This document shows positions 50,064-64,000 of a stretch of DNA of 64,000 nucleotides, one piece after another. The stretch comes from Candidatus Latescibacterota bacterium (GTDB lineage: Bacteria; Latescibacterota; UBA2968; UBA8231). A model generated the notes under the pieces. It worked only from the letters and a program-made list of their open reading frames with translations. It was not told the origin of the DNA and did not search any database. The stretch is taken from positions 1,248,001-1,312,000 of the forward strand of contig CBDCXV010000011.1 in NCBI GenBank assembly GCA_965223905.1, written 5' to 3'. The stretch's first letter is position 1; each line of letters starts with the position of its first letter. The translations under genes and the position numbers were made by a program.

Positions 50064-50492
50064 CAGGAACGCCCATACCCTGGCGGGCAGGGAAGCTCCC
50101 AGCCTAGGGACCGCTGAACCCGCGGAATTCTGGTAGCGGCACCCTGTTATGGCGATTATCTCGCCGGCGCGGCCGCGCTTGCGCCAGGGTTACGTCCACC
50201 GGCTCCAGCCCCCGGACCTGTTCATTCGAGGATCTCCGTCACCATGGCTCAGCAAAGGTAAGCCCGGCACGCCGTCATGAGCCTGCGAGCCGAGGCTGCG
50301 CGCAGCCGCCCCGATTTCATCCTGTTCGTGCCCCGAGGAGGAGGAGGCTATGGAAAGCCCCATACCCCGGCGCCGGAAGCAGCCGTACCACCTCCTGGGT
50401 CAAGGTCTGTGAGGCCACGGGCACTGCCGGGAACGGACCCCTGGTCGCCCGAGGCGACAGTGCACCATCGTAATCAATGGGGAGTTGAGTTC

Positions 50493-53400
50493 ATGAAGGC
50501 GGCAATCATCTGTTCCATCGCGCTGTTCGGGTCTTTCGGCCATGCAGAAGCCCAACCCCTGGTCGAGGGCCGGGTGCGGCTTTCATCGGGCCAACCCGCG
50601 GCCGGCGCCCAGGTGCGGCTGTTCGATCTGTCCGATCTGCGGCGCTCGCTGGCAACGACGACCGATGAGACCGGGTACTTCGCCCTGCCCTCCGGGGCAT
50701 TGCGGGTGCCCGCGGCCGGGGACCTCCACTTGGGGCCGAACTACCCCAATCCGTTCAACCCCTCCACAGTCATCCCGTTCCACCTGCCGGCCTCGACGCC
50801 GGTGCGGCTCGAGGTCTTCAACCTCCTCGGGCAGCGGATCGCCACCCTGGTCGACGGGGAGCTGACCGCCGGATATCACACGGTTCCCTGGAACGGCACG
50901 GACGCCGCGGGGCGGCCGGTCGCCGCGGGGGTCTATCTCTACAGGCTGAGCTTTCCCGGAGGGGCGGAGACCGGGTCGATGGTGCTGACCGACGGCCGGG
51001 CGGGTGCTCCGGGCGCTGGCGGGGGCGCTCCTGCCGCGGCCCCCGGGCAGACCGCGGAGTCCGCCCCGGTGTACGGGCTGACGGTAGCCGGACCTGGCCT
51101 GGAGGCCTTCGTAGACCCGGCCTTCCGGGTGGAGGCAGGCATGGCCCCGGTCGACCTCGTCGTCGAAGCCCTCGGGGGCAGGCCGCGCCCCAAGGCCGCG
51201 GCAGCCTCCGGGCTGTTGGGGGACGTCGACAACAGCGGTCTCGTCGATATCGTCGACGCCCTGCTCCTCGCCATGTACAGCGCCAACCCCTCCATCGTCA
51301 TGCCCAACGGCGGCGACATCTCCCTGGGGGACGTCAACCAGGACGGCACGACCGACTTCACCGACGCCTGGCTCGTCGCCAGATACAGCCTCGATCCGTC
51401 CGATCCCTTGCTACCCCCGGGGATCGGAGAGCCGCTGGCTCCCCCCGCGGCCCTGTCGCCGGACCCGTCCACCGTCGAGTTCGGGAACGACGGCGCCTGG
51501 CACGCCTTCACGGTCCAGGCCGGCGAGCCCGTCGTGGTGGTGGCAAACCCGGGGGAGGGCGCCCCGCTGATGGAGATCAGCGCCAGGAGCACCCGGTTCA
51601 GCTTCTGTCCGGCCGAAGCCGGCGACGCCGTATCGACCGAGGACGGCAGCTCCATCTACCTGTCCGGGTGCGAGGCCGGCACCGGCACGGTCGAGCTGCG
51701 GCGGGCGGAGGACCAGTCGGTCCTGCGGACCTACACCATCGAGATCGAGGATACCGGCGGCAGCCCCCCCGACCTCGTCGTCGACCTCCCTGCGGTCAGC
51801 GACAGCAGCCTGAATACCGGACAGTCCTTCACCCTGAGCGTCACCGTCCGCAACCAGGGGGAGAAGGAATCGGAGGCGACCACCCTGCGCTACTACCGCT
51901 CTACGAACCGAACGATCTCCAGCTGGGATACGGAAGCCGGCACCGGGGCGGTGGGTGCTCTTTCCGCGGCCGGCACCGGCACCTTGTCGATCTCCCTGAC
52001 GGCACCGGCGAGCCCGGGAACCTGGTACTACGGCGCCTGTGTCGAGAGCGTCAGCGGAGAGGGGAACACGCGGAACAACTGCTCCCGAGGGGTGAAGGTG
52101 ACCGTCGGCAGCGCCGACCTCATCGTCGAATCCCCTGCGGCCAGCGACGCCAGCCCGGACGCCGGGGCGGCCTTCACCCTGAGCGCTACGGTCCGCAACC
52201 GGGGAGACAGCCGCTCGACCCTGACGGTGCTGCGCTACTACCGCTCGGATGACGCCACGATCTCGACCAGCGACACGCAGGTCGGCACCGACGCGGTGAG
52301 CTCCCTTTCGGGAAACGCCACCAGCCCCGAGTCGGTGCGGTTGACGGCACCGGCGAACCCGGGAACCTGGTACTACGGGGCCTGCGTCAGGCCCGTGCCC
52401 GGAGAATCCGACACCGGCAACAACTGCTCCGCGGCGGTCGAGGTGACCGTCGCAAGCTCCGACCTGGTGGTCGAGTCCCCCGCGGTCAGCGACGGCAGCC
52501 CGGAGACCGGGGCCTCCTTCACCTTGAGCGCCACGGTCCGCAACCAGGGCAGCAGCCAGTCCGCCTCGACCGTGCTGCGCTACTACCGCTCGCAGGACGC
52601 GGCGATCTCCACGAGCGACGCACAGGTGGGAACCAACGCTGTGGGTGCCCTCCCCGCCTCCGGCACCAGCGCCGAGTCGATCTCCCTGAGGGCTCCGGCG
52701 AGCCCGGCAACCTGGTACTACGGGGCCTGCGTTTCCCCGGTGTCAGGGGAATCCGATACCGGGAACAACTGTTCGTCCGCGGTGGAAGTAACGGTCACGG
52801 CCCCGGAGCCTCGGCTCTCGAAGATGTACTGGACCGACTGGGGAACCGACAGGATTCGCCGCGCCGATCTCGACGGCTCTCAGGTGGAGGAGCTGGTTGC
52901 CGGGGCGGGGCTTGAGGGCCCGGACGGGCTGGCCATCGACGCGGACGGCGGCAGGATGTACTGGACCGACGCGGGCACGGCCAAAATCCAGCGGGCCAAC
53001 CTGGACGGATCCGGGGTGGTAGACCTGGTGACCTCCGGACTCACCATACCCGCGGGGATTGCCCTCGACACGGATGCCGGCAAGATGTACTGGGCCGACG
53101 CCGGCACCGGGAAGATCCAGCGCGGCAACCTCGACGGCTCCGGGGTCGAGGACCTGGTCACCCGGGACGACGGGCTGGCCTTTCCCACGGGGCTGGCTCT
53201 CGATCCGGCGGGAGGGAGGATCTACTGGACGGACCCCGGCACCGACAGGATCCAGCGCGGAAACCTCGACGGCTCCCAGGTGCAGGACCTCGTTACCAGC
53301 GGGATCGACAATCCATCGGCGATCGCCCTCGATTTGAACGGGGGCAGGATGTACTGGACCGACCGCGGCACCCGGAAAATCCAGCGGGCAAACCTCGATG

Positions 53401-53615
53401 GTTCTGGGGTGGAAGACCTGGTCCCCAGGGACCTGGATCTTCCCGGCGGGATGGCGCTGGACCTGCGTGGCGGAAAGATGTACTGGACCGACCGGGGCAC
53501 CGGAAGGATCCTGCGGGCAAACCTCGACGGATCCGGGGTCGAGGAACTCCTGACCAGCGCGGTCGGGTTGGAGAATCCGTCGGGGTTGGCCCTGGCTCCG
53601 GAGGCCGGGAATTGA
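50493..53615 (+). CDS. Secreted modular protein: FlgD-Ig, dockerin, 3 CARDB, YWTD (LDL-receptor class B) propeller
   Basis: Signal peptide from ATG 50493; NYPNPFNPST; GDVDNSG and GDVNQDG dockerin; 3x DL.V..P..TL.ATVRN..LRYYRS..YYGACV..NNCS; 6x MYWTD..I.RANLDGS. Confidence 0.88.
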   Translation: MKAAIICSIALFGSFGHAEAQPLVEGRVRLSSGQPAAGAQVRLFDLSDLRRSLATTTDETGYFALPSGALRVPAAGDLHLGPNYPNPFNPSTVIPFHLPASTPVRLEVFNLLGQRIATLVDGELTAGYHTVPWNGTDAAGRPVAAGVYLYRLSFPGGAETGSMVLTDGRAGAPGAGGGAPAAAPGQTAESAPVYGLTVAGPGLEAFVDPAFRVEAGMAPVDLVVEALGGRPRPKAAAASGLLGDVDNSGLVDIVDALLLAMYSANPSIVMPNGGDISLGDVNQDGTTDFTDAWLVARYSLDPSDPLLPPGIGEPLAPPAALSPDPSTVEFGNDGAWHAFTVQAGEPVVVVANPGEGAPLMEISARSTRFSFCPAEAGDAVSTEDGSSIYLSGCEAGTGTVELRRAEDQSVLRTYTIEIEDTGGSPPDLVVDLPAVSDSSLNTGQSFTLSVTVRNQGEKESEATTLRYYRSTNRTISSWDTEAGTGAVGALSAAGTGTLSISLTAPASPGTWYYGACVESVSGEGNTRNNCSRGVKVTVGSADLIVESPAASDASPDAGAAFTLSATVRNRGDSRSTLTVLRYYRSDDATISTSDTQVGTDAVSSLSGNATSPESVRLTAPANPGTWYYGACVRPVPGESDTGNNCSAAVEVTVASSDLVVESPAVSDGSPETGASFTLSATVRNQGSSQSASTVLRYYRSQDAAISTSDAQVGTNAVGALPASGTSAESISLRAPASPATWYYGACVSPVSGESDTGNNCSSAVEVTVTAPEPRLSKMYWTDWGTDRIRRADLDGSQVEELVAGAGLEGPDGLAIDADGGRMYWTDAGTAKIQRANLDGSGVVDLVTSGLTIPAGIALDTDAGKMYWADAGTGKIQRGNLDGSGVEDLVTRDDGLAFPTGLALDPAGGRIYWTDPGTDRIQRGNLDGSQVQDLVTSGIDNPSAIALDLNGGRMYWTDRGTRKIQRANLDGSGVEDLVPRDLDLPGGMALDLRGGKMYWTDRGTGRILRANLDGSGVEELLTSAVGLENPSGLALAPEAGN

Positions 53616-53656
53616 GATCTGGTACCGTGCGGAGTTTTTTATCAAAGGAGATGTAA

Positions 53657-53911
53657 TTGATGAACGAATCAGCAATACGACTCCGTATCGAGCCTTTGGA
53701 TGAAGGAGGGTTTCTCGCCACGAGCCCTGACGTTCCAGGCTTGGTTGCACAAGGTCGCAGCGTCACTGAAGTCGCGGAGATAGCACAGGGGCTGGCACGA
53801 AAGATTGCAGAGTCGTGCATTGAACACGGCGACCCCCTGCCGCACGCATTGAGATCACACCCGAAGGATCACACCGAAATCGATCTGATGGTACCCGTCA
53901 GCGTTCCGTAA
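53657..53911 (+). CDS. HicB-like antitoxin
   Basis: IEPLDEGGFLATSPDVPGLVAQGRS..E. Confidence 0.85.
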   Translation: MMNESAIRLRIEPLDEGGFLATSPDVPGLVAQGRSVTEVAEIAQGLARKIAESCIEHGDPLPHALRSHPKDHTEIDLMVPVSVP

Positions 53912-53970
53912 TGGGACGACTCTCCGGGTTCAAGTATCGAGAAGTCGTTTGGCGCCTGCGATATTTTTAG
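53911..53970 (+). pseudogene. Truncated HicA toxin (19 codons)
   Basis: TAATG-coupled MGRLSGFKYREVVWRLRYF*, a typical HicA N-terminus that stops before the GSH motif. Confidence 0.65.
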
Positions 53971-54095
53971 CACAAGCTTACCCTCCTGCGGTAGGCGCCT
54001 AAAAGAATCTTCAGCTTCGAATTGGCCAATGTGGCACCCATGCCGGACATGCGGGGGCGCCATTTCCAGGACATTGAAACTCTCCTGAATCCAGC

Positions 54096-54248
54096 GGCCA
54101 GGTTTTGTCCCCTTGCGAAAACCGGTCCACCCCGGCAACTGCCCGCCATTTCAACTTTACAGCAATTGTCTGCATTGCCATGCGGGGCAGACGATTGAGT
54201 CCTGTCAATGCGTAGCACTTAAAAAGCGGTCAGATTTTGTCCCCTTGC
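54096..54248. promoter_or_regulatory. Two GGnCA-N5-TGTCCCCTTG boxes upstream of the Omp85 operon
   Basis: GGCCAGGTTTTGTCCCCTTGC from 54096 and GGTCAGATTTTGTCCCCTTGC from 54228. Confidence 0.5.
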
Positions 54249-54470
54249 ACTTTTTTCCGGCCCCCAGGTCGACTGCTCGCTTGTTTCAATTCTTTGGAAT
54301 CTTATGCATCCCATGCAGGTCAGACATGAACCCTGTCGATCTGAAGCACGCTGAATGGTGTCGGTCTATGAGCCGGCCTTTCTGATTTTACGGTTTCGAT
54401 CTCCAGATTGCGTTTGACGCGCCCCACGCGTCCTGACTAGGATACAGGCCATGCAAAAGGTGAACCCTGC

Positions 54471-55829
54471 ATGATAACCAAAGGTGTCACGATGCTTCGA
54501 TCCCTTTCCCTTGTCCTGGTGTTGACCGCACTGGCTGCGCCGGCTGTGGGGCAAACCGTCCCCACCGCAGCCGCGGAAACCGACACAACCGACGTCTACG
54601 AGACGCGGAACAACCACGTGCTCGCCTTTCCGAAGTACGTCTGGAACGCCCTGGTGTTCCCGCTCGGCAAGTTCACCATCTGGCTCGAACGGAAAGAGGT
54701 TCTCCAGCGGCTGATCGAGATGTTCACCTTCCAGGACATCTTCGAGCTGTATCCGAACGCGACCCTGGGTGGGGAAACCGGAACCGCCGGCGGATACGAG
54801 ATGTTTTACACCAATCTGTTCGGACGCGGAAAAGGGATCTCGACCAGCCTGATCGCCAACCGCTCCAACTACAGCTGGGTCGTCCTGTACGAGGACCCGG
54901 GGATCGGCGGCGGTCCCTGGTACTGGAACGCCTCTGTCGAAGCGCTGAAGACGGGTTATGAGGACGCCACCATAAACGGCGAGCTGCGTGGGTCGGGGTC
55001 CCTGCTCGAGCACGAACAGAGAGATACCAGGATTTCTTTTGGGCGCCGCTCCAACTACGGCGAGACCGAGGGGTACGAACCGGAAGCGGTTCTCGAGCTG
55101 CGGCTGTCCCACGGCTTCCGCGAGTTCGCGGCAGGCGATCTCCACCCCGGCGACTTTCCCGGCCTGAACGAGTCGGTCAACCTGTTCTCGGTCGGCGCCA
55201 TGGCGGCCTTCGACGACCGGGACTTCAAGCCGCCGGCCGCCTCGATCAGCCTTCCGCTGAACTACCAGCTGCCCGGGCGGGTCCTTCTTTTCGCCGACGA
55301 CCGCTACTACAGCTTTCGCGACACCGCCTTCCCCGAGCGCGGAGGGCTCGCCCGCATCGAGGCGGATTACGCAGCCGGCTCCGAGGACGTCCGGTATTTC
55401 CGTTACACAGCCGAGCTCCAGCGCTTCTTCACCCTGTTTTTCAGGAACCGCATCCTCGGGATCAGGGCGCGGCTCGAGAAGGCGCATGCCCTGGGAGACG
55501 TCAGCTTCATCCCCTATTCCGACATGCCCACTCTGGGCGGCGATGGGCAGTTGCGCGGGTACCGGCGCGGATTCTTTCGCGACACGGGCAGCCTGCTGTT
55601 CAGCGCCGAATACCGCTACCCGATCTGGGACACCTGGAACGCCGTCCTGTTCTGGGACGAAGGGCAGGTGTTCGGCAAGTACGGCGACCTCGAACCGGGC
55701 GGGTTCGAGTACAGCTACGGCGCCGGCATCAGCGTGCGCACGGAGCGTTCCTTCCTGTTCGGGGTGCGCATCGCCCGCAGCAAGGAGGAGAAGGCGTTGA
55801 CCGGCTTCTCGCTGGAAAAGGAGTTCTGA
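54471..55829 (+). CDS. Omp85/BamA-TamA family outer-membrane barrel without obvious POTRA domains
   Basis: Signal peptide; LGG..LRGY..FRD, AEYRYP, F.D.G.V, YG.G motifs; terminal Phe. Start may be 54492. Confidence 0.85.
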   Translation: MITKGVTMLRSLSLVLVLTALAAPAVGQTVPTAAAETDTTDVYETRNNHVLAFPKYVWNALVFPLGKFTIWLERKEVLQRLIEMFTFQDIFELYPNATLGGETGTAGGYEMFYTNLFGRGKGISTSLIANRSNYSWVVLYEDPGIGGGPWYWNASVEALKTGYEDATINGELRGSGSLLEHEQRDTRISFGRRSNYGETEGYEPEAVLELRLSHGFREFAAGDLHPGDFPGLNESVNLFSVGAMAAFDDRDFKPPAASISLPLNYQLPGRVLLFADDRYYSFRDTAFPERGGLARIEADYAAGSEDVRYFRYTAELQRFFTLFFRNRILGIRARLEKAHALGDVSFIPYSDMPTLGGDGQLRGYRRGFFRDTGSLLFSAEYRYPIWDTWNAVLFWDEGQVFGKYGDLEPGGFEYSYGAGISVRTERSFLFGVRIARSKEEKALTGFSLEKEF

Positions 55830-57505
55830 TGGGCTCTCGGCGAGTCGCCATGCTGCTGGTTCCTGTGCTGTTGCTGCCGATCGCCGGCATGGCCGCCCCG
55901 GAGCTGACCGCCGATCCCGTCAAGTGGTTCGACGCCGACAACAAGCCGGTCCCCGAGCCGGCCGAGGCCGAGGAGAACAAGGTCTGGGACTTCATTGACA
56001 AATCCTCCTTTTACCAGGTCGGCAAGGTGCTGGACCTGGGGTGGACCGCGCGTCGAGTCGGAGACCTCCTCGGCGTCGTCGGACCGCGCCAGGCCGACAA
56101 CGTCAACGCCCTCGACGAGGTCCCCAACTCCTCCTGGTTCACCAACCGGCACTTCCTGCTGCCGATGACCCTGGAAGAGCTGGCGGAAGGACCCGGTTTC
56201 GCCGAAGCCGACGACAGCGGCCCCTGGGAGATCGTCGCCGGCAAGTTCGAGGGGATCACCGCGGGTTTCACCATCAAGGACGCCTCGAAGCGGTACTTCC
56301 TGCTCAAGTTCGATTCCGAAGGGAACAACGAGATGGGATCCGGGGCCGAGGCGGTCGCCACCAAGGTGCTGTACGCGGCCGGCTACAACGTTCCCCACAA
56401 CTCCGTCCTCTACTTCGATCCCGGACAGCTGCAGATCGGACCGAAGGCCAGGGTGCCGGCGAAAGACGGCGGCAAGCGGCCGATGACCCCGAAGGACCTC
56501 CGGGAAATCCTCGCCCACATCACCCCGCAGCCCGACGGCACCCTGCGCTGCCTCGCCAGCCAGTTCCTCACGGGAAAACCGGTCGGCGTCTTCAACTACA
56601 ACGGGCGACGCAGGGACGACCCCAACGACCGGGTCGACCACGAGCACCGGCGCGAGCTGAGGGGGCTGCGCGTCATCGGCTCCTGGCTCAACGATGCCGA
56701 CCGCCGGGCGGCCAATACCCTGGACATGTACGTGACCGGGGCGGACGGCCGCCGCTACGTCCGCCACTACCTGATCGACATGGGCTCCGCCCTCGGCAGC
56801 GGCAGCTGGAGACCGCACCAGCCCAAGCACGGCAACGAGTACATGGTGGACCCGCGCACGATCTTGCGGTCGCTGGTATCGCTGGGGTTCTACATGAAGA
56901 AGTGGGAAGAGCCGGTGCCGATGCCGTACATCTCGCTCGGATACTTCGAGAACGAGACCTTCCGTCCCGGGGGCTGGGTGCCGGACTATCCCAACCCGGC
57001 GTTCGAACGCTGCACCAACCGGGACGGGTACTGGGGCGCCAAGATCGTCATGGGCTTCCGCGACGACGAAATCCGCGCCATGGTCGAGAGGGGGCGCTAC
57101 TCCGATCCGGGCGCCACCGCGGAGCTGACCCGGCTCCTGGCCGAACGCCGGGACATGATCGGGCGCTACTGGTTCGAGCGCGTCAACCCGCTGGATCGCT
57201 TTGAAGTGGAAGACAGCCGGCTTCGGTTCGTCGATCTCGCCGTGGAGGGGGAGCTGGTACCGCGCGAATCGCGGCAGTGGCGGTATGCCGTTGTCGATGC
57301 AGACGGGGACCGTATTGCGGAGCCGCGTGTTATATCCGAGCCGGTCATCCCGATCGGCGAGGAGGCGCGGGCGGGGCAGTTCTTCGGCTACCGGATCCGG
57401 AGCCGCAGCGGCGAGAGCGGGAAGTGGAGCAAGAAGACCACGGTGTTTCTATACAAGCACGAGGACGGCCGCCTGCAACTGGTGCGGATCGACCGGGAAG
57501 AGTGA
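55829..57505 (+). CDS. Secreted protein with atypical (HipA/PI3-4K/CotH-like) kinase motifs
   Basis: Signal peptide; EGITAGF..LLKFD, GAEAVATK..AAGYNVP, WLNDADRRAAN, YLIDMGS; translationally coupled (TGATG) to Omp85. Confidence 0.7.
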   Translation: MGSRRVAMLLVPVLLLPIAGMAAPELTADPVKWFDADNKPVPEPAEAEENKVWDFIDKSSFYQVGKVLDLGWTARRVGDLLGVVGPRQADNVNALDEVPNSSWFTNRHFLLPMTLEELAEGPGFAEADDSGPWEIVAGKFEGITAGFTIKDASKRYFLLKFDSEGNNEMGSGAEAVATKVLYAAGYNVPHNSVLYFDPGQLQIGPKARVPAKDGGKRPMTPKDLREILAHITPQPDGTLRCLASQFLTGKPVGVFNYNGRRRDDPNDRVDHEHRRELRGLRVIGSWLNDADRRAANTLDMYVTGADGRRYVRHYLIDMGSALGSGSWRPHQPKHGNEYMVDPRTILRSLVSLGFYMKKWEEPVPMPYISLGYFENETFRPGGWVPDYPNPAFERCTNRDGYWGAKIVMGFRDDEIRAMVERGRYSDPGATAELTRLLAERRDMIGRYWFERVNPLDRFEVEDSRLRFVDLAVEGELVPRESRQWRYAVVDADGDRIAEPRVISEPVIPIGEEARAGQFFGYRIRSRSGESGKWSKKTTVFLYKHEDGRLQLVRIDREE

Positions 57506-57528
57506 GCGCAAGGAGAAAGGAATAGGGA

Positions 57529-58977
57529 ATGGACGTTCTGGGGTTCGAGTTTTTCCAGGGTTTCATGCATTACCTCGGCGTGCTGCAGTGGCCGCTGGTC
57601 GTCGTCTTCCTGCTGTTCATCGCCTGGCAGATACGGGGTTTCGCGCCGGAGGAGCGGCTGCAGACCGGCCTGATGTTTTCCTACTTCTTCCTGGTGATCA
57701 CGACCTTCTGGATCCTCAAGCCGATCAAGAAGGGGCTCTTCATCAGCTACTACAAAGAGGTCGGCGGCTTCGACCTGCTGGGCTGGTGGCAGTTCGACGC
57801 GGCGCAGGCCGAGCTGCTTGCCAAAGTCCTCAACATGGCGGTCGCCGCCGCGGCGGTCGCCGTCTTCACCCTTCTCGCCCGCTCCTTCCGTCGCCAGCAG
57901 CTCACCTTCATTCTGTCGGGCTTCTTCATTCTCTGTTACCTGGCCTACAGCTTCCTCCTCGACAATGCCGGCGGCGGCACCGTCTGGACCTTCTACCTGT
58001 TCGGCGACCTGTTCAGCACGTTGATGGTCGCCACCTTCTTCGCCTTCCTCAACGACAGCGTCGATCCTTCCTCCGCCAAGCGGCTCTACGGGCTGATCGG
58101 TCTCGGGGGGGTTTCGGGAGGTTTCTTCGGCAGCGCCGTCGTCGGCGTCAACGTCAAGAGCCTCAGCCCGGCGCTGTCCATGTGGTTGTGCCTGGCGATC
58201 GCCGTCGCCATCGCGCTTGTCGCCCTGGCCGCGGGCCGGGTAGTAAGCCGCAAGCTGGCGGCGCAGGAAACCGGGGGAAGCAAAGCGGAGGATGCATCCG
58301 ATTCTCAAGCCGCCCAGACTGAAGATCAGCCCCAGGGGAATCCGGCCTGGGAAGGTGCGCGGCTCGCCCTGCGCTCGCGGTATCTACTGTCGGTGGTGGC
58401 CATCGTCGGTCTCTACGAAATGGTCTCCACCATAATGGATTTCCAGTTCACCTCGACGGTGCTCCACTACCTCGACGGCCCGCAGATCGGAGAGCATTTC
58501 CCGCGCGTGTTCACGTTCACCAACATGGTCGCCCTCGTCGTTCAGCTGTTTCTCACCAGCTTCGTGATGACGCGGTTCGGTGTCGGCCCGGCGCTGCTGT
58601 TCCTTCCGGTTGCTGCCCTTCTGGGTTCGGCAGGATTCCTGATCGCCCCGGTGCTCCTCCTCGGGAGCCTGTTGAACACGACCGACAACGGCTTCAGCTA
58701 CTCGATCAACCAGTCGGCGAAGGAAGCCCTCTACGTTCCCACCACGCGGGACGAGAAGTACAAGGCCAAGGCTTTCATCGACATGTTCGTGCAGCGGTTC
58801 GCCAAGGCACTGGCCGTCGGCCTGAGTCTTTTGATTACGACCCTGTTTGCAGGGTATTCGAGCATTCGCTGGTTGTCGCTGGTGACCGCCGCCATCCTGT
58901 TGTTGTGGATCCTCGCCGCCCGTTACGCAGGCCGGAGTTTCCGCGAGAAGGAGGAGGGGGCTGCCGCGTCGGTGTGA
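57529..58977 (+). CDS. NTT/TLC family (Npt1-like ATP/ADP translocase) MFS transporter
   Basis: About 12 TM segments; ILKPIK, F..LND..AKRLYGLI, YSINQSAKEALYVP..EKYKAK..ID..R. Confidence 0.82.
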   Translation: MDVLGFEFFQGFMHYLGVLQWPLVVVFLLFIAWQIRGFAPEERLQTGLMFSYFFLVITTFWILKPIKKGLFISYYKEVGGFDLLGWWQFDAAQAELLAKVLNMAVAAAAVAVFTLLARSFRRQQLTFILSGFFILCYLAYSFLLDNAGGGTVWTFYLFGDLFSTLMVATFFAFLNDSVDPSSAKRLYGLIGLGGVSGGFFGSAVVGVNVKSLSPALSMWLCLAIAVAIALVALAAGRVVSRKLAAQETGGSKAEDASDSQAAQTEDQPQGNPAWEGARLALRSRYLLSVVAIVGLYEMVSTIMDFQFTSTVLHYLDGPQIGEHFPRVFTFTNMVALVVQLFLTSFVMTRFGVGPALLFLPVAALLGSAGFLIAPVLLLGSLLNTTDNGFSYSINQSAKEALYVPTTRDEKYKAKAFIDMFVQRFAKALAVGLSLLITTLFAGYSSIRWLSLVTAAILLLWILAARYAGRSFREKEEGAAASV

Positions 58978-59378
58978 CAGACAGAAGAGACGAAACGGGA
59001 CCGAAGTCATTCAGTCCCCCGGCGGCCGTGTGACGCCGATCCTCGGGGTGCTCGCTTCTTTGGTCGGAACGAAGGGCACGACCGCTCGATCCGTATGACC
59101 TGCGGTCTAAGGCCGTCCAAAAGCTTAACTCCGATCCGGGCAGCACCTGGAATAGCCTCAGCTGAGAACTGGGCGCTGTCATTCCGCTAGGAACGGATGG
59201 CGGTGGCAAACCTGCGAGGCGACCGTCGCCTTGCCCCCCTGATCTATCGTTCGACCCTGGACCGTTGGTAAGGTCCATGTTCTGAGTCTAATGGCTGATT
59301 CTATCTATATTATCCCCCAAAATAAACCCAGGGGGATTCGGCGGCTCCTGGAGGATGCTCTGCAACTTAAGTGCCTGC

Positions 59379-60302
59379 TCAAACATGGACACCGGGGATC
59401 GATGGTTCTCCTGAGGGGTGTTCGAGCGAGAAATGGCGGTAGGCAAACTCTATCCGGTCGTTCTTGCCGAAGGCGTCGACGATTTTCCCCACGATCTCGC
59501 TGGAGATGCGTTCCCGCTCCACCGCAATGGACTTGTACCGCAGCCGCATCGTTATGCCGGAATGAAAGAATTCAGCACGGACGAACGGAGTCTCTCCGGT
59601 CTCCTCGATGATCTCCGGGGTCACCTCGGAGGCGCAGTCGATCAATGTCTGTTCCGACAGCCGGTATTCCGACTGATAGGAGATACGGACCGGAACCTCG
59701 TCGAGTATGTACTTGGCTTCCTGGGAAACTGCGTAGTTGGTGACCATCTGGTCGAACAGTACGGCATTGGGGATAAGAACCGCTCGATTGGATTTTTCTT
59801 CCCCGCCGATAGTCCCGCCCACTTCCCCCAGAAGAATATGGGTGGGACTTATGTCCAGCACGTCCCCCCGCACTCCCTGAAGTATGATCCGGTCGCCGAT
59901 CTGGAAGGGCCGTTTGATCATAACCATGAGCCAGGCGGCCACTCCGGTGACCGGCCGTTGGAGAGACCAGCCCAGGATCATGCTGAGGAAAGCAGCGCTT
60001 ATCCCCATGGCCGCGAATGAACCGGACAAGCTGACGACAATCAGAATGATCCCCGCCAAAAGAAAGGTGTACTTCAACAGGGAGTGGACCCGGTGGATCT
60101 GCACCTCCCGGCGATTCTGGGCTCGCATGGCTCCCAGGACCACACCCTTGACCGTTTTGTAGATGATATAAATGACGACAAGCGCCAAAGTTGCAGGCAG
60201 GAGGTATAGTATCACTTCAAGGATATCCCTCACCAGTTCAGGGACATGGTGGGAGACCCATCCCTCGGTGCTGTTCAGCCAGTCAGTTATTACCTGTGGC
60301 AT
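59379..60302 (-). CDS. Small-conductance mechanosensitive channel (MscS family)
   Basis: TM N-terminus; RPFQIGDRI..G.V.DI, IPNA.L..V.N; purine-rich RBS before ATG 60302. Confidence 0.88.
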   Translation of the reverse strand: MPQVITDWLNSTEGWVSHHVPELVRDILEVILYLLPATLALVVIYIIYKTVKGVVLGAMRAQNRREVQIHRVHSLLKYTFLLAGIILIVVSLSGSFAAMGISAAFLSMILGWSLQRPVTGVAAWLMVMIKRPFQIGDRIILQGVRGDVLDISPTHILLGEVGGTIGGEEKSNRAVLIPNAVLFDQMVTNYAVSQEAKYILDEVPVRISYQSEYRLSEQTLIDCASEVTPEIIEETGETPFVRAEFFHSGITMRLRYKSIAVERERISSEIVGKIVDAFGKNDRIEFAYRHFSLEHPSGEPSIPGVHV

Positions 60303-60697
60303 CGGTCGGTTCCTCTTTCCTCTTCCTTGGCGATGGTAAAATGCCTTTGGTACCTCGGTTTCATCGGGATGCCGCGCCAAAGGCATCCCGGTCCACGGCC
60401 GGTCCGGCTCCCCCCTTCCCTGACGCGCCGTCCGCGATCCTTTGATCAAAAAAGAAGCCTGTCATCTGCAAGCTATCCGGACAGAAAAGCGCGTCAACGC
60501 ACCCGGGGTTCTGGTTCCGTGCCCAGGAAGGCCGCTGGCTTTACCGACGATCCGGATGCTCACATCGAGACAATCCGGTGCCTGATCCCCTCAAGGGTAA
60601 ACCTGCCCATGCCCTGGCTACCATCCTCAACAGGGCTTCCGGTGAGTCGGGGCGGGATCCGCGTCTGTAGGGGAAGCGGCTTCGCTGGAATTAAAAG

Positions 60698-60761
60698 GGA
60701 CAGTAACTGTCCGCATTGAGATTTTTTTTTACATGCTGGACGCAACGGACACCCCCTGTCC
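60698..60761. promoter_or_regulatory. Two GGACA-N5-TGTCC palindromes, probable WYL-regulator binding sites
   Basis: GGACAGTAACTGTCC (60698-60712) and GGACACCCCCTGTCC (60747-60761) directly upstream of the WYL gene. Confidence 0.7.
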
Positions 60762-60798
60762 CCTTGGAGCCCATCTTTATCGTCGGGAGGATGAAGCT

Positions 60799-61794
60799 AT
60801 GCTCATTGCCGATGCTATCCACAAGGCGGATCGACTCGAACAGATAAAGGTACTGTTCCGGCGGCGGCCCGAGGGGGTAGGGACCGGTGAAATCGCCCGG
60901 CTGTTGGGGGTCAGCCAACGGACCGCCCGGCGCTATGTGAAGGAGCTGTCGGAGCACGGACGGCTGCCGGTGTACCGGGAAGGCCGTGTCTGGAAGTTGG
61001 TGGAAGGCGGGCACATCGACCTGCTTCGCCTCCAGCTGAACCTCGACGAGGCCCTCTCGCTCTACCTGGCGGCGCGGATGCTGTCCGCCTACAGCGACAA
61101 GCACAATCCGCACGTGGTAGCATCCCTGCTCAAGCTCGCGGCAACCTTGCCCGACGCCATCGGGGCGCACGTCGAGCAGGCGGCCGTGGCGGTTTCCCAA
61201 AGACGGCTTGCCCCGGACTACATGAAAGTCCTCGAAGGTCTCACCCGGGCCTGGGCCGGCCGGCGGCAGGTACAGATCGTTTATCGCGATCCCATCACCG
61301 GGGCGCGCTCCGAGCGCCTGTTCGACCCCTTTTTCATCGAGCCTTCCTTCTTGGGCTATTCCTGCTACGTGTTCGGGTTCGATCACTTCCGCCGGGCGAT
61401 CCGCTCCTTCAAGGTCGAGCGGCTGGAAGAGGTCGAGGTGTTGGATTCCCGTTTCGAGCCGTTGCCGGATTTCGATCCCTACGACTACCTCAGGCACGCC
61501 TGGGGGATCAGGGGCGGCGACGAGGTGGTGGAGGTGAAATTGCGGTTTTCCATGAACGCGGTCTATCGGGTGAATGAATCCGACTGGCCGGGAGTGATCG
61601 CCCGGGAGGAAGACCGGGAGGGGCGTTGTACGCTGACGTTCCTGGTCAATCACGTTCTGGAAATCAAGTCCTGGATCAGGGCATGGGGACCCGAGTGCGA
61701 GGTGCTGGGCCCGGAGGAGTTGCGCCGGGAGATCGGGGAGGAGATGAAGGCGGCGACGGAACTGTATACGAACAACCCGGGAGTAGGGAGCTGA
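60799..61794 (+). CDS. wHTH-WYL-WCX transcriptional regulator
   Basis: EIARLLGVSQRTARRY HTH; I.Y..R..DP..YVFG..RSFKVERL WYL; WIRAWG..CEVL.P.ELR WCX; GGAGG RBS. Confidence 0.92.
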   Translation: MLIADAIHKADRLEQIKVLFRRRPEGVGTGEIARLLGVSQRTARRYVKELSEHGRLPVYREGRVWKLVEGGHIDLLRLQLNLDEALSLYLAARMLSAYSDKHNPHVVASLLKLAATLPDAIGAHVEQAAVAVSQRRLAPDYMKVLEGLTRAWAGRRQVQIVYRDPITGARSERLFDPFFIEPSFLGYSCYVFGFDHFRRAIRSFKVERLEEVEVLDSRFEPLPDFDPYDYLRHAWGIRGGDEVVEVKLRFSMNAVYRVNESDWPGVIAREEDREGRCTLTFLVNHVLEIKSWIRAWGPECEVLGPEELRREIGEEMKAATELYTNNPGVGS

Positions 61795-61944: not shown

Positions 61945-64000
61945 ATGAAGAATGCAATCGGCGGTCTCATGTGGCTGTTGTCGAGCCTGCACGCAGGAGC
62001 GGAGCCACTTGTGGAGGGGCGGGTCAGGCTGGCCTCGGGGGGACCGGCGGCCGGGGCGCAGGTGCTGCTGTTCGACCTGACCGACCTGCGCCTGGCGCCG
62101 GTCGCTGCGACCACCGATGAAGCGGGGTACTTCGCGCTGCCTTTCGGAGGGTTGCGGTCATGGGTGGCGGTTTTTCCGGAGCGGTTCGAGTTGGGGCAGA
62201 ACTATCCCAATCCATTCAATCCTTCCACCATAATCCCCTACCAGCTCCCGGCCTCGACCCGGGTGCGGCTCGAGATCTTCAACATCCTTGGACAGCGGGT
62301 GACGACCCTGGCCGACGGAGAGCGGGCGGCCGGCTTTCACACGGCTCGTTGGCACGCCACCGATTCCGCGGGGCGCGCCGTGGCCGCCGGGGTCTACTTC
62401 TACCGGCTGAAGGGCGAGGGGGTTCATCAGACCCGGCGCATGGTGTTGATCGACGGGCAGGCGGGGATTCCTTCGGCAGGGCCGGGCGGTCCGCCCGCCG
62501 CAGTCCTGGAGGCAGAGGAAACAACCCCGGTCTTCGGATTGGCCGTCTCGGGTGCGGGGCTTGTCCCCTACGTCGACCCCGCCTTCCGGGTGGAGGCGGG
62601 CATGGCTCCGGTGGACATCGTCGTCGAAGCTTCCGGCGGGATCCTGCATGCGAAGGTGGCCTCAGGCGGGATCCTGGGCGACGTCGACAACAACGGCCGG
62701 GTCGACATTTTCGACGCCCTGCTGGTTGCCGTGTACAGCGCCAATGCCAACCTCGTCATGCCGAACAACGGCGATATAACCCTCGGTGACGTCAACCGGG
62801 ACGGCCAGACGGATCTCACCGACGCCTACCACATCGCCACCTACACAGTGGATCCCTCCGATCCGACGCTGCCCGCAGGAATCGGGGAGGCCCTGGTCCA
62901 AGGGACGGCATCGCTGTCCCCCCTTCCCTCCACCGTCTCCTTCCAGGACGACGGAGTCTGGCACCGGTTTACGGTCCAGGCCGGCGAGCCGATCGTGGTG
63001 GTGGCCAATCCCACCGGAACCACCCCGCGTGTGGAGATCAACACCAGCAGCGGCTCCAATTACTGTCCGGCGGAAGCCGAGGACGACCGGGCGCGCCAGG
63101 ACGGTGAGGAAGTCTACCTCGCCGGCTGCTCCTCTGGTACGGGTACAGTTGAACTGCGACGGGCGTCCGACCAGACCGTCCTGCAAACCTATACCTTCAC
63201 GATACAGGGACAGGGAACAGGGGGAGGGGGAGGCGGCAATGCCCCCGACCTGATTGTCGAGACCCCTACGGTCACCAACAGCAGCCCGACCGCCGGCGCC
63301 TCCTTCACCCTGAGGGCCAGAGTCCGAAACCAAGGTGCGGCCCGGTCCAGCTCGACCACCCTGCGCTACTACCGCTCCACCGACGCGACGGTTTCCACCA
63401 GCGACACCCAGGTCGGCACCGACCTCGTGAGCAGCCTGTCCGCTTCCCGAACCAGCTCCGAGTCGATCAGCCTCCGCGCTCCCTCCAGCGCCGGAACCTA
63501 CTACTACGGCGCCTGTGTCGAGAGCGTCAGCAGCGAAACCAATACCGGGAACAACTGCTCCGCAGCGGTGACCGTAACCGTGGGCGCCGCACCGGCCCCG
63601 GATCTCCTCGTCGATGCTCCTACGGTCAGCAACAGCAGCCCGGCTGCCGGCGCCTCCTTCACCCTGAGGGCCACCGTACGAAACCAGGGTGCGGCCCGGT
63701 CCGGCTCAACCACCCTGCGCTACTACCGCTCCACCGACGCCACCGTTGACTCCAGTGACACCGAAGTCGGCACCGACCTGGTCAGCAGGCTGTCCGCTTC
63801 CCGAACCAGCTCCGAGTGGATCACCCTACGCGCACCTTCCAGCGCCGGTACCTACTACTACGGGGCCTGTGTCGAGAGCGTGAGCGGGGAAACCAATACC
63901 GGAAACAACTGCTCCGCTGCCGTAACCCTAACCGTGGGCGCCGCACCGGCCCCGGATCTCGTCGTCGATGCCCCAACGGTCACCACCAGCAGCCCGGCTG
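61945..64000 (+). CDS. Secreted FlgD-Ig/dockerin/CARDB protein, paralog of 50493-53615; runs off the window end
   Basis: Open frame from ATG 61945 (MKNAIGG..EPLVEGRVRL..NYPNPFNPST..GDVDNNG..); CARDB units at a 354-bp period (63244, 63598, 63952). Absent from the ORF track because it has no stop in the window. Confidence 0.88.
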   Translation, partial: MKNAIGGLMWLLSSLHAGAEPLVEGRVRLASGGPAAGAQVLLFDLTDLRLAPVAATTDEAGYFALPFGGLRSWVAVFPERFELGQNYPNPFNPSTIIPYQLPASTRVRLEIFNILGQRVTTLADGERAAGFHTARWHATDSAGRAVAAGVYFYRLKGEGVHQTRRMVLIDGQAGIPSAGPGGPPAAVLEAEETTPVFGLAVSGAGLVPYVDPAFRVEAGMAPVDIVVEASGGILHAKVASGGILGDVDNNGRVDIFDALLVAVYSANANLVMPNNGDITLGDVNRDGQTDLTDAYHIATYTVDPSDPTLPAGIGEALVQGTASLSPLPSTVSFQDDGVWHRFTVQAGEPIVVVANPTGTTPRVEINTSSGSNYCPAEAEDDRARQDGEEVYLAGCSSGTGTVELRRASDQTVLQTYTFTIQGQGTGGGGGGNAPDLIVETPTVTNSSPTAGASFTLRARVRNQGAARSSSTTLRYYRSTDATVSTSDTQVGTDLVSSLSASRTSSESISLRAPSSAGTYYYGACVESVSSETNTGNNCSAAVTVTVGAAPAPDLLVDAPTVSNSSPAAGASFTLRATVRNQGAARSGSTTLRYYRSTDATVDSSDTEVGTDLVSRLSASRTSSEWITLRAPSSAGTYYYGACVESVSGETNTGNNCSAAVTLTVGAAPAPDLVVDAPTVTTSSPA

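Follow-up and report, generated by a model that had tools for sequence, protein, structure and literature searches.

Outer-membrane barrels of the Omp85 superfamily are recognised by two sequence signatures, (L/M)RG(W/Y/F) in loop 6 and FxDxG in strand 13, as given in the available text of PMC11358297. That text and the available part of PMC4104836 describe a 'noNterm' Omp85 class of unknown function. At the inner membrane, the TLC family of transporters includes the nucleotide transporters (NTTs); in the available text of PMC5381601, all characterised NTTs carry nucleotides, and their homologues in free-living bacteria count as uncharacterised. Here we describe a locus at which genes of these two families stand on either side of a gene for an exported protein with a kinase fold. 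It lies in a 64,000-nucleotide stretch of DNA from a Candidatus Latescibacterota bacterium (assembly GCA_965223905.1, contig CBDCXV010000011.1, positions 1,248,001 to 1,312,000), referred to below as the window, and comprises three genes:

54471–55829, + strand: POTRA-less (noNterm) Omp85-family outer-membrane barrel, 452 residues (Pfam Omp85 match and structural model)
55829–57505, + strand: exported atypical kinase-fold protein, 558 residues (model and fold matches, without a curated family)
57529–58977, + strand: TLC/NTT-family inner-membrane transporter, 482 residues (Pfam TLC match)

Every part of the trio comes from a known superfamily, and no characterised system combines the three. The original prediction, made from the letters of the window, had said as much, and we found no description of the trio or of the wider module in the literature, supplements not covered. 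We read the trio as an envelope kinase whose barrel partner would hold it at the outer membrane and whose nucleotide would come from the TLC transporter, a reading we offer tentatively, at slightly under an even chance.

The tight linkage first noticed in the sequence agrees with the open reading frame coordinates. The stop codon of the barrel gene and the ATG of the kinase gene overlap by one base (TGATG, 55827–55831), and the TLC gene follows after 23 nucleotides that include a purine-rich ribosome-binding stretch. A 560-nucleotide leader of lower G+C content lies upstream. Because a convergent MscS-like gene ends the unit downstream, we take it to consist of exactly three genes. Measured against three orthologous loci, the ratio of nonsynonymous to synonymous substitution rates (dN/dS) was 0.29–0.33 for the barrel, 0.19–0.21 for the kinase-like protein and 0.08–0.13 for the TLC protein, and all three are therefore real genes under purifying selection. 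A promoter scan returned one site against 1.4 expected, which is not above chance. An Rfam scan of 53500–59500 found no family except two chance microRNA matches, and none of the three proteins had a match in PADLOC.

The middle protein had no Pfam match at E ≤ 0.1 and no NCBIfam match. It founds a large family without a curated model, in which an export signal accompanies an intact kinase active site. Of 8000 candidates scored, 3221 were related at E ≤ 0.001, the relatives form 2879 representative clusters (807 at E ≤ 1e-30), all unnamed, and 40–60% identity is kept across phyla. The AlphaFold model, made with 33 sequences (predicted local distance difference test score, pLDDT, 79.1; predicted template modelling score 0.82), has strands 133–160 ending at K160, helix C at 169–183 with E174, a helix at 275–286, the catalytic loop, strands 297–315 and then D317. 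This is the bilobal fold of the protein-kinase-like superfamily, in the group that holds CtkA/HipA, Fam20, CotH and PI4KII. By VIA-align, an aligner independent of Foldseek, the closest entry is CtkA (Z 13.5, root-mean-square deviation (rmsd) 3.7, 217 aligned residues), followed by Fam20 and Fam20C (Z 12.0–12.1), CotH (11.6), PI4KII-alpha (11.4), HipA (10.8) and HipT (10.7); eleven kinase entries span Z 10.6–13.5. All nine Foldseek matches at E ≤ 0.001 are Fam20C or Fam20A (probability 0.93–1.00; best Fam20C, E 1.6e-4, probability 1.00), and PI4KII-alpha, Rio2, hydra Fam20 and CtkA come below that set. The original prediction had expected a PI3/4-kinase, HipA or CotH fold; the two aligners returned PI4KII, HipA/CtkA and CotH, and Fam20C besides.

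The kinase-like elements that had been named from the sequence could all be located, in the order given: GKFEGITAG (138–146), LLKFD (158–162), GAEAVA (172–177), NDADRRAAN (288–296) and HYLIDMGS (313–320). The features of the protein are as follows, with residue conservation counted in 127 diverse relatives:

55829–55897, + strand: signal peptide-like N-terminus, residues 1–23 (hydrophobic; model helix 2–20)
56174–57196, + strand: kinase core, residues ~116–456 (VIA-align, Foldseek and hhalign)
56306–56308, + strand: K160, the strand-3 lysine (LLKFD), ending strand 156–160; K in 119/127
56348–56350, + strand: E174, the helix-C glutamate, in helix 169–183; E in 95/127, D in 24/127
56615–56665, + strand: family-specific acidic/basic motif DDPND..HEHRRELRG, residues 263–279; D267, H271, R275 and R278 in 127/127
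56690–56716, + strand: catalytic loop NDADRRAAN, residues 288–296; D291 in 123/127, N296 in 120/127
56765–56788, + strand: HYLIDMGS, residues 313–320, with the DFG-equivalent metal-binding Asp, after strands 297–315; D317 in 121/127
57182–57496, + strand: C-terminal fibronectin-III-like β-sandwich, residues ~452–556 (pLDDT >90)

The Lys/Glu/Asp/Asn/Asp set of the protein-kinase-like superfamily is complete, and the predicted conservation of its Asp, Asn and second Asp is borne out by these counts. At position 289 of the catalytic loop, 79 of the relatives have H, 19 have N and 12 have D; F follows D317 in 109, and H313 is kept in 124. The family consensus reads HxDxxxxN, then DFG. D399 and W402 are also invariant in this sample, and the catalytic residues are invariant across six divergent members, a paralogue in the same genome among them.

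By profile, the nearest families are HipA-like. Aligned by hhalign with a 40-sequence HipA_2 (PF20613) alignment, the family scored 66–69% (E about 5e-5, 224–229 columns), and K160, E174 and D291 were paired with the invariant Lys, Glu and loop Asp of HipA_2; in the DFG region the alignment was not clean. HipA_C gave 17–20%, APH 0.1% and an Omp85 negative control 1.5–1.7%. The 40-sequence alignment was needed, as comparison with single HipA_2 sequences (1.3–1.5%) was uninformative. Weak Pfam matches among 83 relatives were to HipA_2 in 11 and to HipA_C in 11, collinear with the proposed kinase lobes, and every other family was matched at most twice. The highest-scoring relative reached 22.6 bits, where the cut-off is 27; the kinase-like protein is distantly related to the HipA families but falls outside them. 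Fam20 (PF06702) did not match the window protein at E ≤ 0.1 and is absent from the 25 families listed for the 83 relatives. Searches of Protein Data Bank sequences with the sequence and its profile gave no useful match. ESM Atlas neighbours (Fam20C, HipA_2, LepB_N, FJX1, PI3_PI4_kinase and CotH, at 0.78–0.81) serve as leads only, and PI3/PI4-kinase genes, present in 3 of 168 genomes of the window's phylum, were too few for a profile.

Two other kinase genes of these bacteria may be recorded here. One genome of the window's phylum encodes a 280-residue PI3/PI4-kinase-like protein with a lipoprotein-type signal (L129 1063–1905, + strand), a further exported atypical kinase whose sequence is unrelated to the middle-protein family. 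The only HipA_C-type kinase gene of the window's genome (G000:C2:220569-221194; L086, L087) is split over two reading frames and is a pseudogene or an assembly error.

The company of PI4KII raises a rather improbable alternative, in which the middle protein is an outer-membrane lipid or glycan enzyme and the TLC protein either transports something other than ATP, for instance another nucleotide derivative or a compound linked to lipid, or just shares its regulation. The enzyme could then be a lipid or sugar kinase, or a nucleotidyl-transferring enzyme with a non-ATP donor. Besides PI4KII-alpha, its structural relatives include hydra Fam20, deposited with a sugar (Z 12.1), and the lipid kinase MavQ (8.9), and one relative (P0258, 955 residues; protein sequence only) is fused to an N-terminal GT4 glycosyltransferase domain. 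In this fold, however, the Lys/Glu/Asp/Asn/Asp set forms the ATP-Mg site.

The signal peptide originally assigned to the middle protein appears in the model as a hydrophobic, signal-like helix. A hydrophobic N-terminal 12-mer occurs in 147 of 154 relatives and, by a crude pattern, a lipobox-like Cys in 64 of the 154; the window protein has no lipobox Cys. At the other end, the β-sandwich resembles fibronectin type III (FN3) and cytokine-receptor domains (Z 8.3–9.9, rmsd 2.1–2.9, 80–93 aligned residues). Given the FN3-like domain and the signal peptide, which in many relatives is of the lipoprotein type, the protein should work outside the cytoplasm. Some relatives are longer: P0365–P0371, of ~1000–1176 residues, carry a C-terminal extension of ~610 residues that is not Omp85-like.

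The barrel protein matches Pfam Omp85 (PF01103; E 4.3e-17, 63.1 bits against a cut-off of 24), the sole family reported for it at E ≤ 0.1. In part of the noNterm class, a DUF5982 region over the first two strands marks a subset, according to the available text of Grassmann et al. 2024 (PMC11358297). In the model (pLDDT 76.1), a signal helix and a disordered linker lead to two short helices (residues 49–84), after which come 16 long strands (91–447); both Omp85 signatures are in place:

54597–54680, + strand: short helical N-terminal segment in the POTRA position, residues 43–70; conserved in 26 partner barrels
55551–55577, + strand: Omp85 loop-6 RGY/RGF signature, residues 361–369; R362 and G363 nearly invariant or invariant in 26 partners
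55650–55673, + strand: Omp85 strand-13 FxDxG signature, residues 394–401; F394, D396, G398, Q399 and V400 conserved

The terminal Phe is conserved as well. With its 16-stranded C-terminal barrel and the two signatures, the protein belongs to the Omp85 superfamily. It had been predicted to lack POTRA domains, and so it does: no POTRA family was found at E ≤ 0.1 in Pfam, and the model places only the two short helices (49–74 and 77–84, pLDDT about 57–66) before the strands. The barrel is therefore of the noNterm class rather than of the BamA, TamA or TpsB type. The fold of the barrel itself is nonetheless closest to BamA (Z 25.3), the TamA barrel (24.1) and Sam50 (24.0) when residues 89–452 are aligned by VIA-align. 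By group, BamA/TamA/Sam50 score Z 23–25, the two-partner-secretion barrels FhaC and CdiB 18–21 (20.7 and 19.8), and porins at most 13.6.

These comparisons bear on a very unlikely alternative, a secreted effector or toxin kinase that passes through its own Omp85 translocator, in the manner of two-partner secretion, and acts on other cells, with the TLC gene an unrelated neighbour. The best structural match, CtkA, is listed as a Helicobacter pylori proinflammatory kinase, the HipA and HipT toxins were matched too, and Omp85/TpsB barrels export partners encoded alongside them (PMC11358297, available text). The barrel, however, lacks POTRA domains and is closer to BamA/TamA/Sam50 than to FhaC/CdiB, and the would-be cargo has neither a two-partner-secretion (TPS) domain nor any other Pfam domain. 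Identity of 40–60% across phyla and a dN/dS of about 0.2 are unlike those of arms-race effectors, PADLOC has no match, and the linkage to TLC genes described below is too reciprocal for chance.

The pairing of barrel and kinase was followed across 79 loci, one genome per species, labelled Latescibacterota, Gemmatimonadota, Planctomycetota, Calditrichota, Bacteroidota/Rhodothermales/Salinibacter, Nitrospirota, KSB1, Marinimicrobia, Zixibacteria, Krumholzibacteriota and, once, Gammaproteobacteria. Linkage counts here and below are descriptive rather than tests, as related genomes are non-independent. At 61 of the 69 loci with enough flank, under at least 8 phylum-level labels, the barrel gene ends ≤400 nucleotides upstream of the kinase gene on the same strand; at some of the remaining loci one gene stands between them. 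A divergent relative led to 15 metagenome loci; the two genes are adjacent in 11 of them, and 4 were too short to judge. The order is kinase-barrel in 5 of the 11 and barrel-kinase in 6; since both orders are found adjacent, the pairing survives inversion. The window's own genome holds a second barrel and kinase pair at 70% and 81% identity, about 65 kb downstream (G000:C11:1367296-1370324; L003 5219-8328), with a DUF2279 lipoprotein gene upstream.

A survey for kinase-Omp85 fusions, proposed with the original prediction, turned up one apparent case (P0364), which was not upheld. The three closest DNA relatives (66–82% identity) have separate genes, the barrel gene there has its own start and signal peptide, and the P0364 junction falls inside that signal peptide. 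This suggests a one-off deletion or an artefact of assembly or gene calling.

The third protein had been called an NTT translocase, and the family assignment stands. It passes the Pfam TLC threshold (PF03219; E 1.5e-19, 70.7 bits against a cut-off of 21, profile positions 150–369 and 395–489), it matches solved NTTs (9j3n, E 1.5e-12; 9j3j, E 2.6e-10), and a crude hydropathy scan finds 12 hydrophobic 19-mer segments, in keeping with a transporter of about 12 helices. By sequence, it is a distant member of the TLC/NTT family. Its gene is the single TLC-family gene of the window's genome.

Co-occurrence of the transporter with the pair was part of the same prediction and holds in part. Of 70 loci with ≥1500 nucleotides of flank, 39 have a TLC-like gene downstream in the same orientation, which starts within 700 nucleotides in 33 of the 39. 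Where at least 5500 nucleotides of flank were available, it was downstream on the same strand at 32 of 55 loci and elsewhere in the flank at 4 more. Among 151 genomes of the window's phylum, 36 have the kinase gene and 47 a TLC match; 32 have both, 4 only the kinase and 15 only TLC. A TLC match is thus present in 32 of 36 kinase-bearing genomes versus 15 of 115 others. Conversely, each of the 20 genomes with an orthologue of the window's TLC protein (≥59% identity) also encodes the kinase; 17 have the two genes directly side by side, one has them some 9 kb apart and two have them more than 1 Mb apart. The TLC orthologue is present in 5 of 101 genomes of the Salinibacter class, each time with the kinase gene ≤3.2 kb away; a phylum-wide sample around Salinibacter (2 of 121 genomes) was too sparse to use. 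In genomes G000, G168, G169 and G170, no TLC-family gene is more than about 9 kb from the kinase gene.

Many loci encode a TLC protein of ~450 residues and a TLC-HEAT fusion of ~900 residues, then a cyclic nucleotide monophosphate (cNMP)-binding gene. At L016, L055, L068, L082 and others, the TLC-HEAT genes (~900–1000 residues), often followed by a cNMP-binding gene of ~145 residues, stand in the same cluster as the kinase gene. These clusters tie the uncharacterised proteins with NTT, HEAT and cyclic nucleotide-binding domains (Major et al. 2017) to the kinase module. Two cultured species offer access to it: the cluster is complete in Salinibacter altiplanensis AN15 (L055), and Nitrospira moscoviensis (L075) has the pair and a PAP2 gene, with a TLC gene 8.7 kb away.

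On the envelope-kinase reading, a kinase-fold enzyme of the CtkA/HipA-Fam20-CotH-PI4KII group would be active outside the cytoplasm. At the outer membrane, the dedicated POTRA-less Omp85 would be its partner and most likely hold or present it; the original prediction had allowed for anchoring, export or supply of substrate. The TLC transporter would most probably exchange cytoplasmic ATP for periplasmic ADP, much as the original prediction had the NTT export ATP, and so give the kinase a phosphate donor where the compartment otherwise has little; the periplasm is generally ATP-poor. Such exchange would be the simplest way of feeding a periplasmic kinase, whose substrate may be an envelope protein, lipid or glycan.

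Several observations weigh against this reading. ATP released to the periplasm could leak through porins. The transporter scored 62.4 bits against the 387.2-bit cut-off of NCBIfam TIGR00769 (NTP/NDP exchange transporter), and its substrate may therefore differ. So large a shortfall also suits a lipid or glycan enzyme with another cargo, although no TLC member with a non-nucleotide substrate was found in the available text of PMC5381601. As to co-occurrence, there is no TLC gene downstream at 31 of 70 loci, and both kinase-only (4 of 36) and TLC-only (15) genomes occur in the window's phylum. A Nitrospiria sample (101 genomes; TLC in 6, the kinase gene in 2, both in 1) showed no coupling, and the paralogous pair has a BipA/TypA GTPase gene 3′ of it and no TLC gene. 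The claim of co-occurrence thus survives as reciprocal linkage in two lineages; the TLC link is facultative, not universal. Some Latescibacterota relatives (L024 type) have neither partner, the P0364 fusion failed, and none of 9 long forms is a kinase-TLC fusion. Contigs from two metatranscriptome libraries are 95–99% identical to parts of all three genes, which is weak evidence for expression as DNA carry-over is possible, and none of them bridges a gene junction with 31 nucleotides on each side.

The recurrent neighbours of the module point to the envelope and to phosphate chemistry; no neighbour is universal. PAP2 phosphatases are found nearby at 22 loci, in Nitrospira mostly directly 5′ of the barrel gene, and a Metallophos-type (PF00149-type) lipoprotein gene at 6. 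Single neighbours are PhoD (L055), a type I phosphodiesterase (L084), LPG_synthase_TM, phosphatidylserine decarboxylase and MlaA. The recurrence of PAP2 and other phosphoesterases suggests a cycle of phosphorylation and dephosphorylation on an envelope component. It would also suit an alternative that we regard as unlikely, though the most serious of those weighed here: scavenging of nucleotides or organic phosphate, in which the kinase-fold protein would bind or process external nucleotides, the TLC protein would import them, like the characterised NTTs of intracellular bacteria, and the phosphatases would free phosphate, without ATP export. Characterised NTTs all import nucleotides, by the available text of PMC5381601, and the linkage data fit import as well as export. 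Yet a complete phosphotransfer site is conserved that would be superfluous in a binding protein, and an extracytoplasmic kinase would still need a donor. The barrel is of the BamA/TamA/Sam50 type, not porin-like, and a free-living bacterium with a 7.9-Mb genome would have no evident need for energy parasitism. For a lipid or glycan enzyme, the PAP2, LPG_synthase_TM, phosphatidylserine decarboxylase and MlaA genes are suitable company, but these lipid neighbours vary by lineage.

Two further families recur beside the module. A Cys-rich lipoprotein family of ~308 residues, with no Pfam or NCBIfam match, is encoded 3′ of the kinase gene at 16 Nitrospira loci. MscS genes are found near the module at several loci, of which L084 has one 3′ of its TLC gene; a related open reading frame cluster occurs at 5 loci. 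Their coordinates are:

L075 7697–8617, L061 7737–8732 and L064 4367–5308: Cys-rich lipoprotein examples (13 more Nitrospira loci)
Window 59379–60449, − strand: MscS-like mechanosensitive channel, convergent with the TLC gene

Around the trio, the window holds genes of other kinds. Large paralogous secreted proteins are encoded on either side of it (50277–53615, + strand, and 61945–63999, + strand, 3′ end open), with CarboxypepD_reg, FlgD_ig/T9SS-tail-like (type IX secretion system), Dockerin_1 and CARDB domains; the protein of 50277–53615 has, in addition, six LDL-receptor class B (YWTD) repeats. An HTH-WYL-WCX (helix-turn-helix) regulator at 60733–61794 (+ strand) has PADLOC matches to WYL models and to the N-terminal portion of a Cas3c model. 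A small open reading frame at 53657–53911 (+ strand) has a weak HicB-like antitoxin match (E 0.0055, under cut-off), and a HicB-like gene is likewise near the module in L045.

The conserved linkage gives the kinase family, the NTTs of free-living bacteria and the noNterm Omp85 proteins one joint, testable hypothesis and, were it true, would give the latter two a function. If the TLC protein feeds ATP to the periplasm, this would contradict the view of a periplasm without usable ATP and open extracytoplasmic phosphorylation in bacteria to study. As the gene set is kept in many bacterial phyla, some bacteria may use ATP extracytoplasmically. A wider claim, possible but doubtful, is that free-living diderms of many phyla practise ATP-dependent phosphorylation outside the cytoplasm, by means of an NTT exchanger, a Fam20/CtkA-like kinase held by an Omp85 barrel, and phosphoesterases that reverse the mark.

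Set beside known systems, the trio shares some features with each. Like the NTT/TLC transporters of Major et al. 2017 (PMC5381601), gene 3 passes the TLC threshold and matches solved NTTs, and the NTT-HEAT fusion and cNMP-binding gene of that paper's available text are common at related loci of the module. Unlike the established NTTs, it is far under the equivalog cut-off and its host is free-living; the available text mentions no barrel or kinase neighbour, with 'Omp85' occurring 0 times. The barrel resembles the noNterm Omp85 proteins of Heinz & Lithgow 2014 (PMC4104836) and Grassmann et al. 2024 (PMC11358297) in its 16 strands, its signatures and its lack of POTRA domains, as far as their available text goes. 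There, the noNterm Omp85 genes of Leptospira have a lipoprotein gene 3′ of them (PMC11358297), as in the module, and a likeness is noted between noNterm barrels and a subfamily with a fused PF00149 domain (PMC4104836). Our barrel differs in having a kinase-fold protein as its partner and a transporter gene in the same set; the word 'kinase' is absent (0 occurrences) from the available text of PMC11358297. Two-partner secretion (TpsB/TpsA) likewise places the gene of an Omp85-superfamily barrel beside that of an exported partner, but has two POTRA domains in the barrel and a TPS domain in the cargo, neither of which we found, and its barrels are less close to ours than BamA, TamA and Sam50.

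For the kinase-like protein, the CotH spore-coat kinases and type II PI 4-kinases belong to the same structural group and share a DxxxxN loop followed by IDxG, although sequence membership was not detected and their settings are the spore coat and eukaryotic membranes. HipA-like kinases (HipA_2, the HipA/HipT toxins and H. pylori CtkA) are nearest by profile and structure; the window protein differs in being exported, in being twice the size and in having extra N-terminal and FN3-like domains. Nor does the locus have the form of a HipBA toxin-antitoxin pair, as the kinase has an export signal, is encoded after an Omp85 gene with a TLC gene on its other flank, and has no PADLOC match. With the Fam20C/Fam20 kinases of the secretory pathway (Golgi casein kinase), it shares an atypical kinase fold outside the cytosol and a signal peptide; those kinases are eukaryotic and without a barrel partner, and the likeness to the window protein is structural only, at 8–10% identity. 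Lumenal kinases of eukaryotes rely on an ATP/ADP exchanger in the membrane, a logic analogous to that of the proposed module, which would, if the wider claim is correct, be a bacterial counterpart of the secretory-pathway kinase system of eukaryotes.

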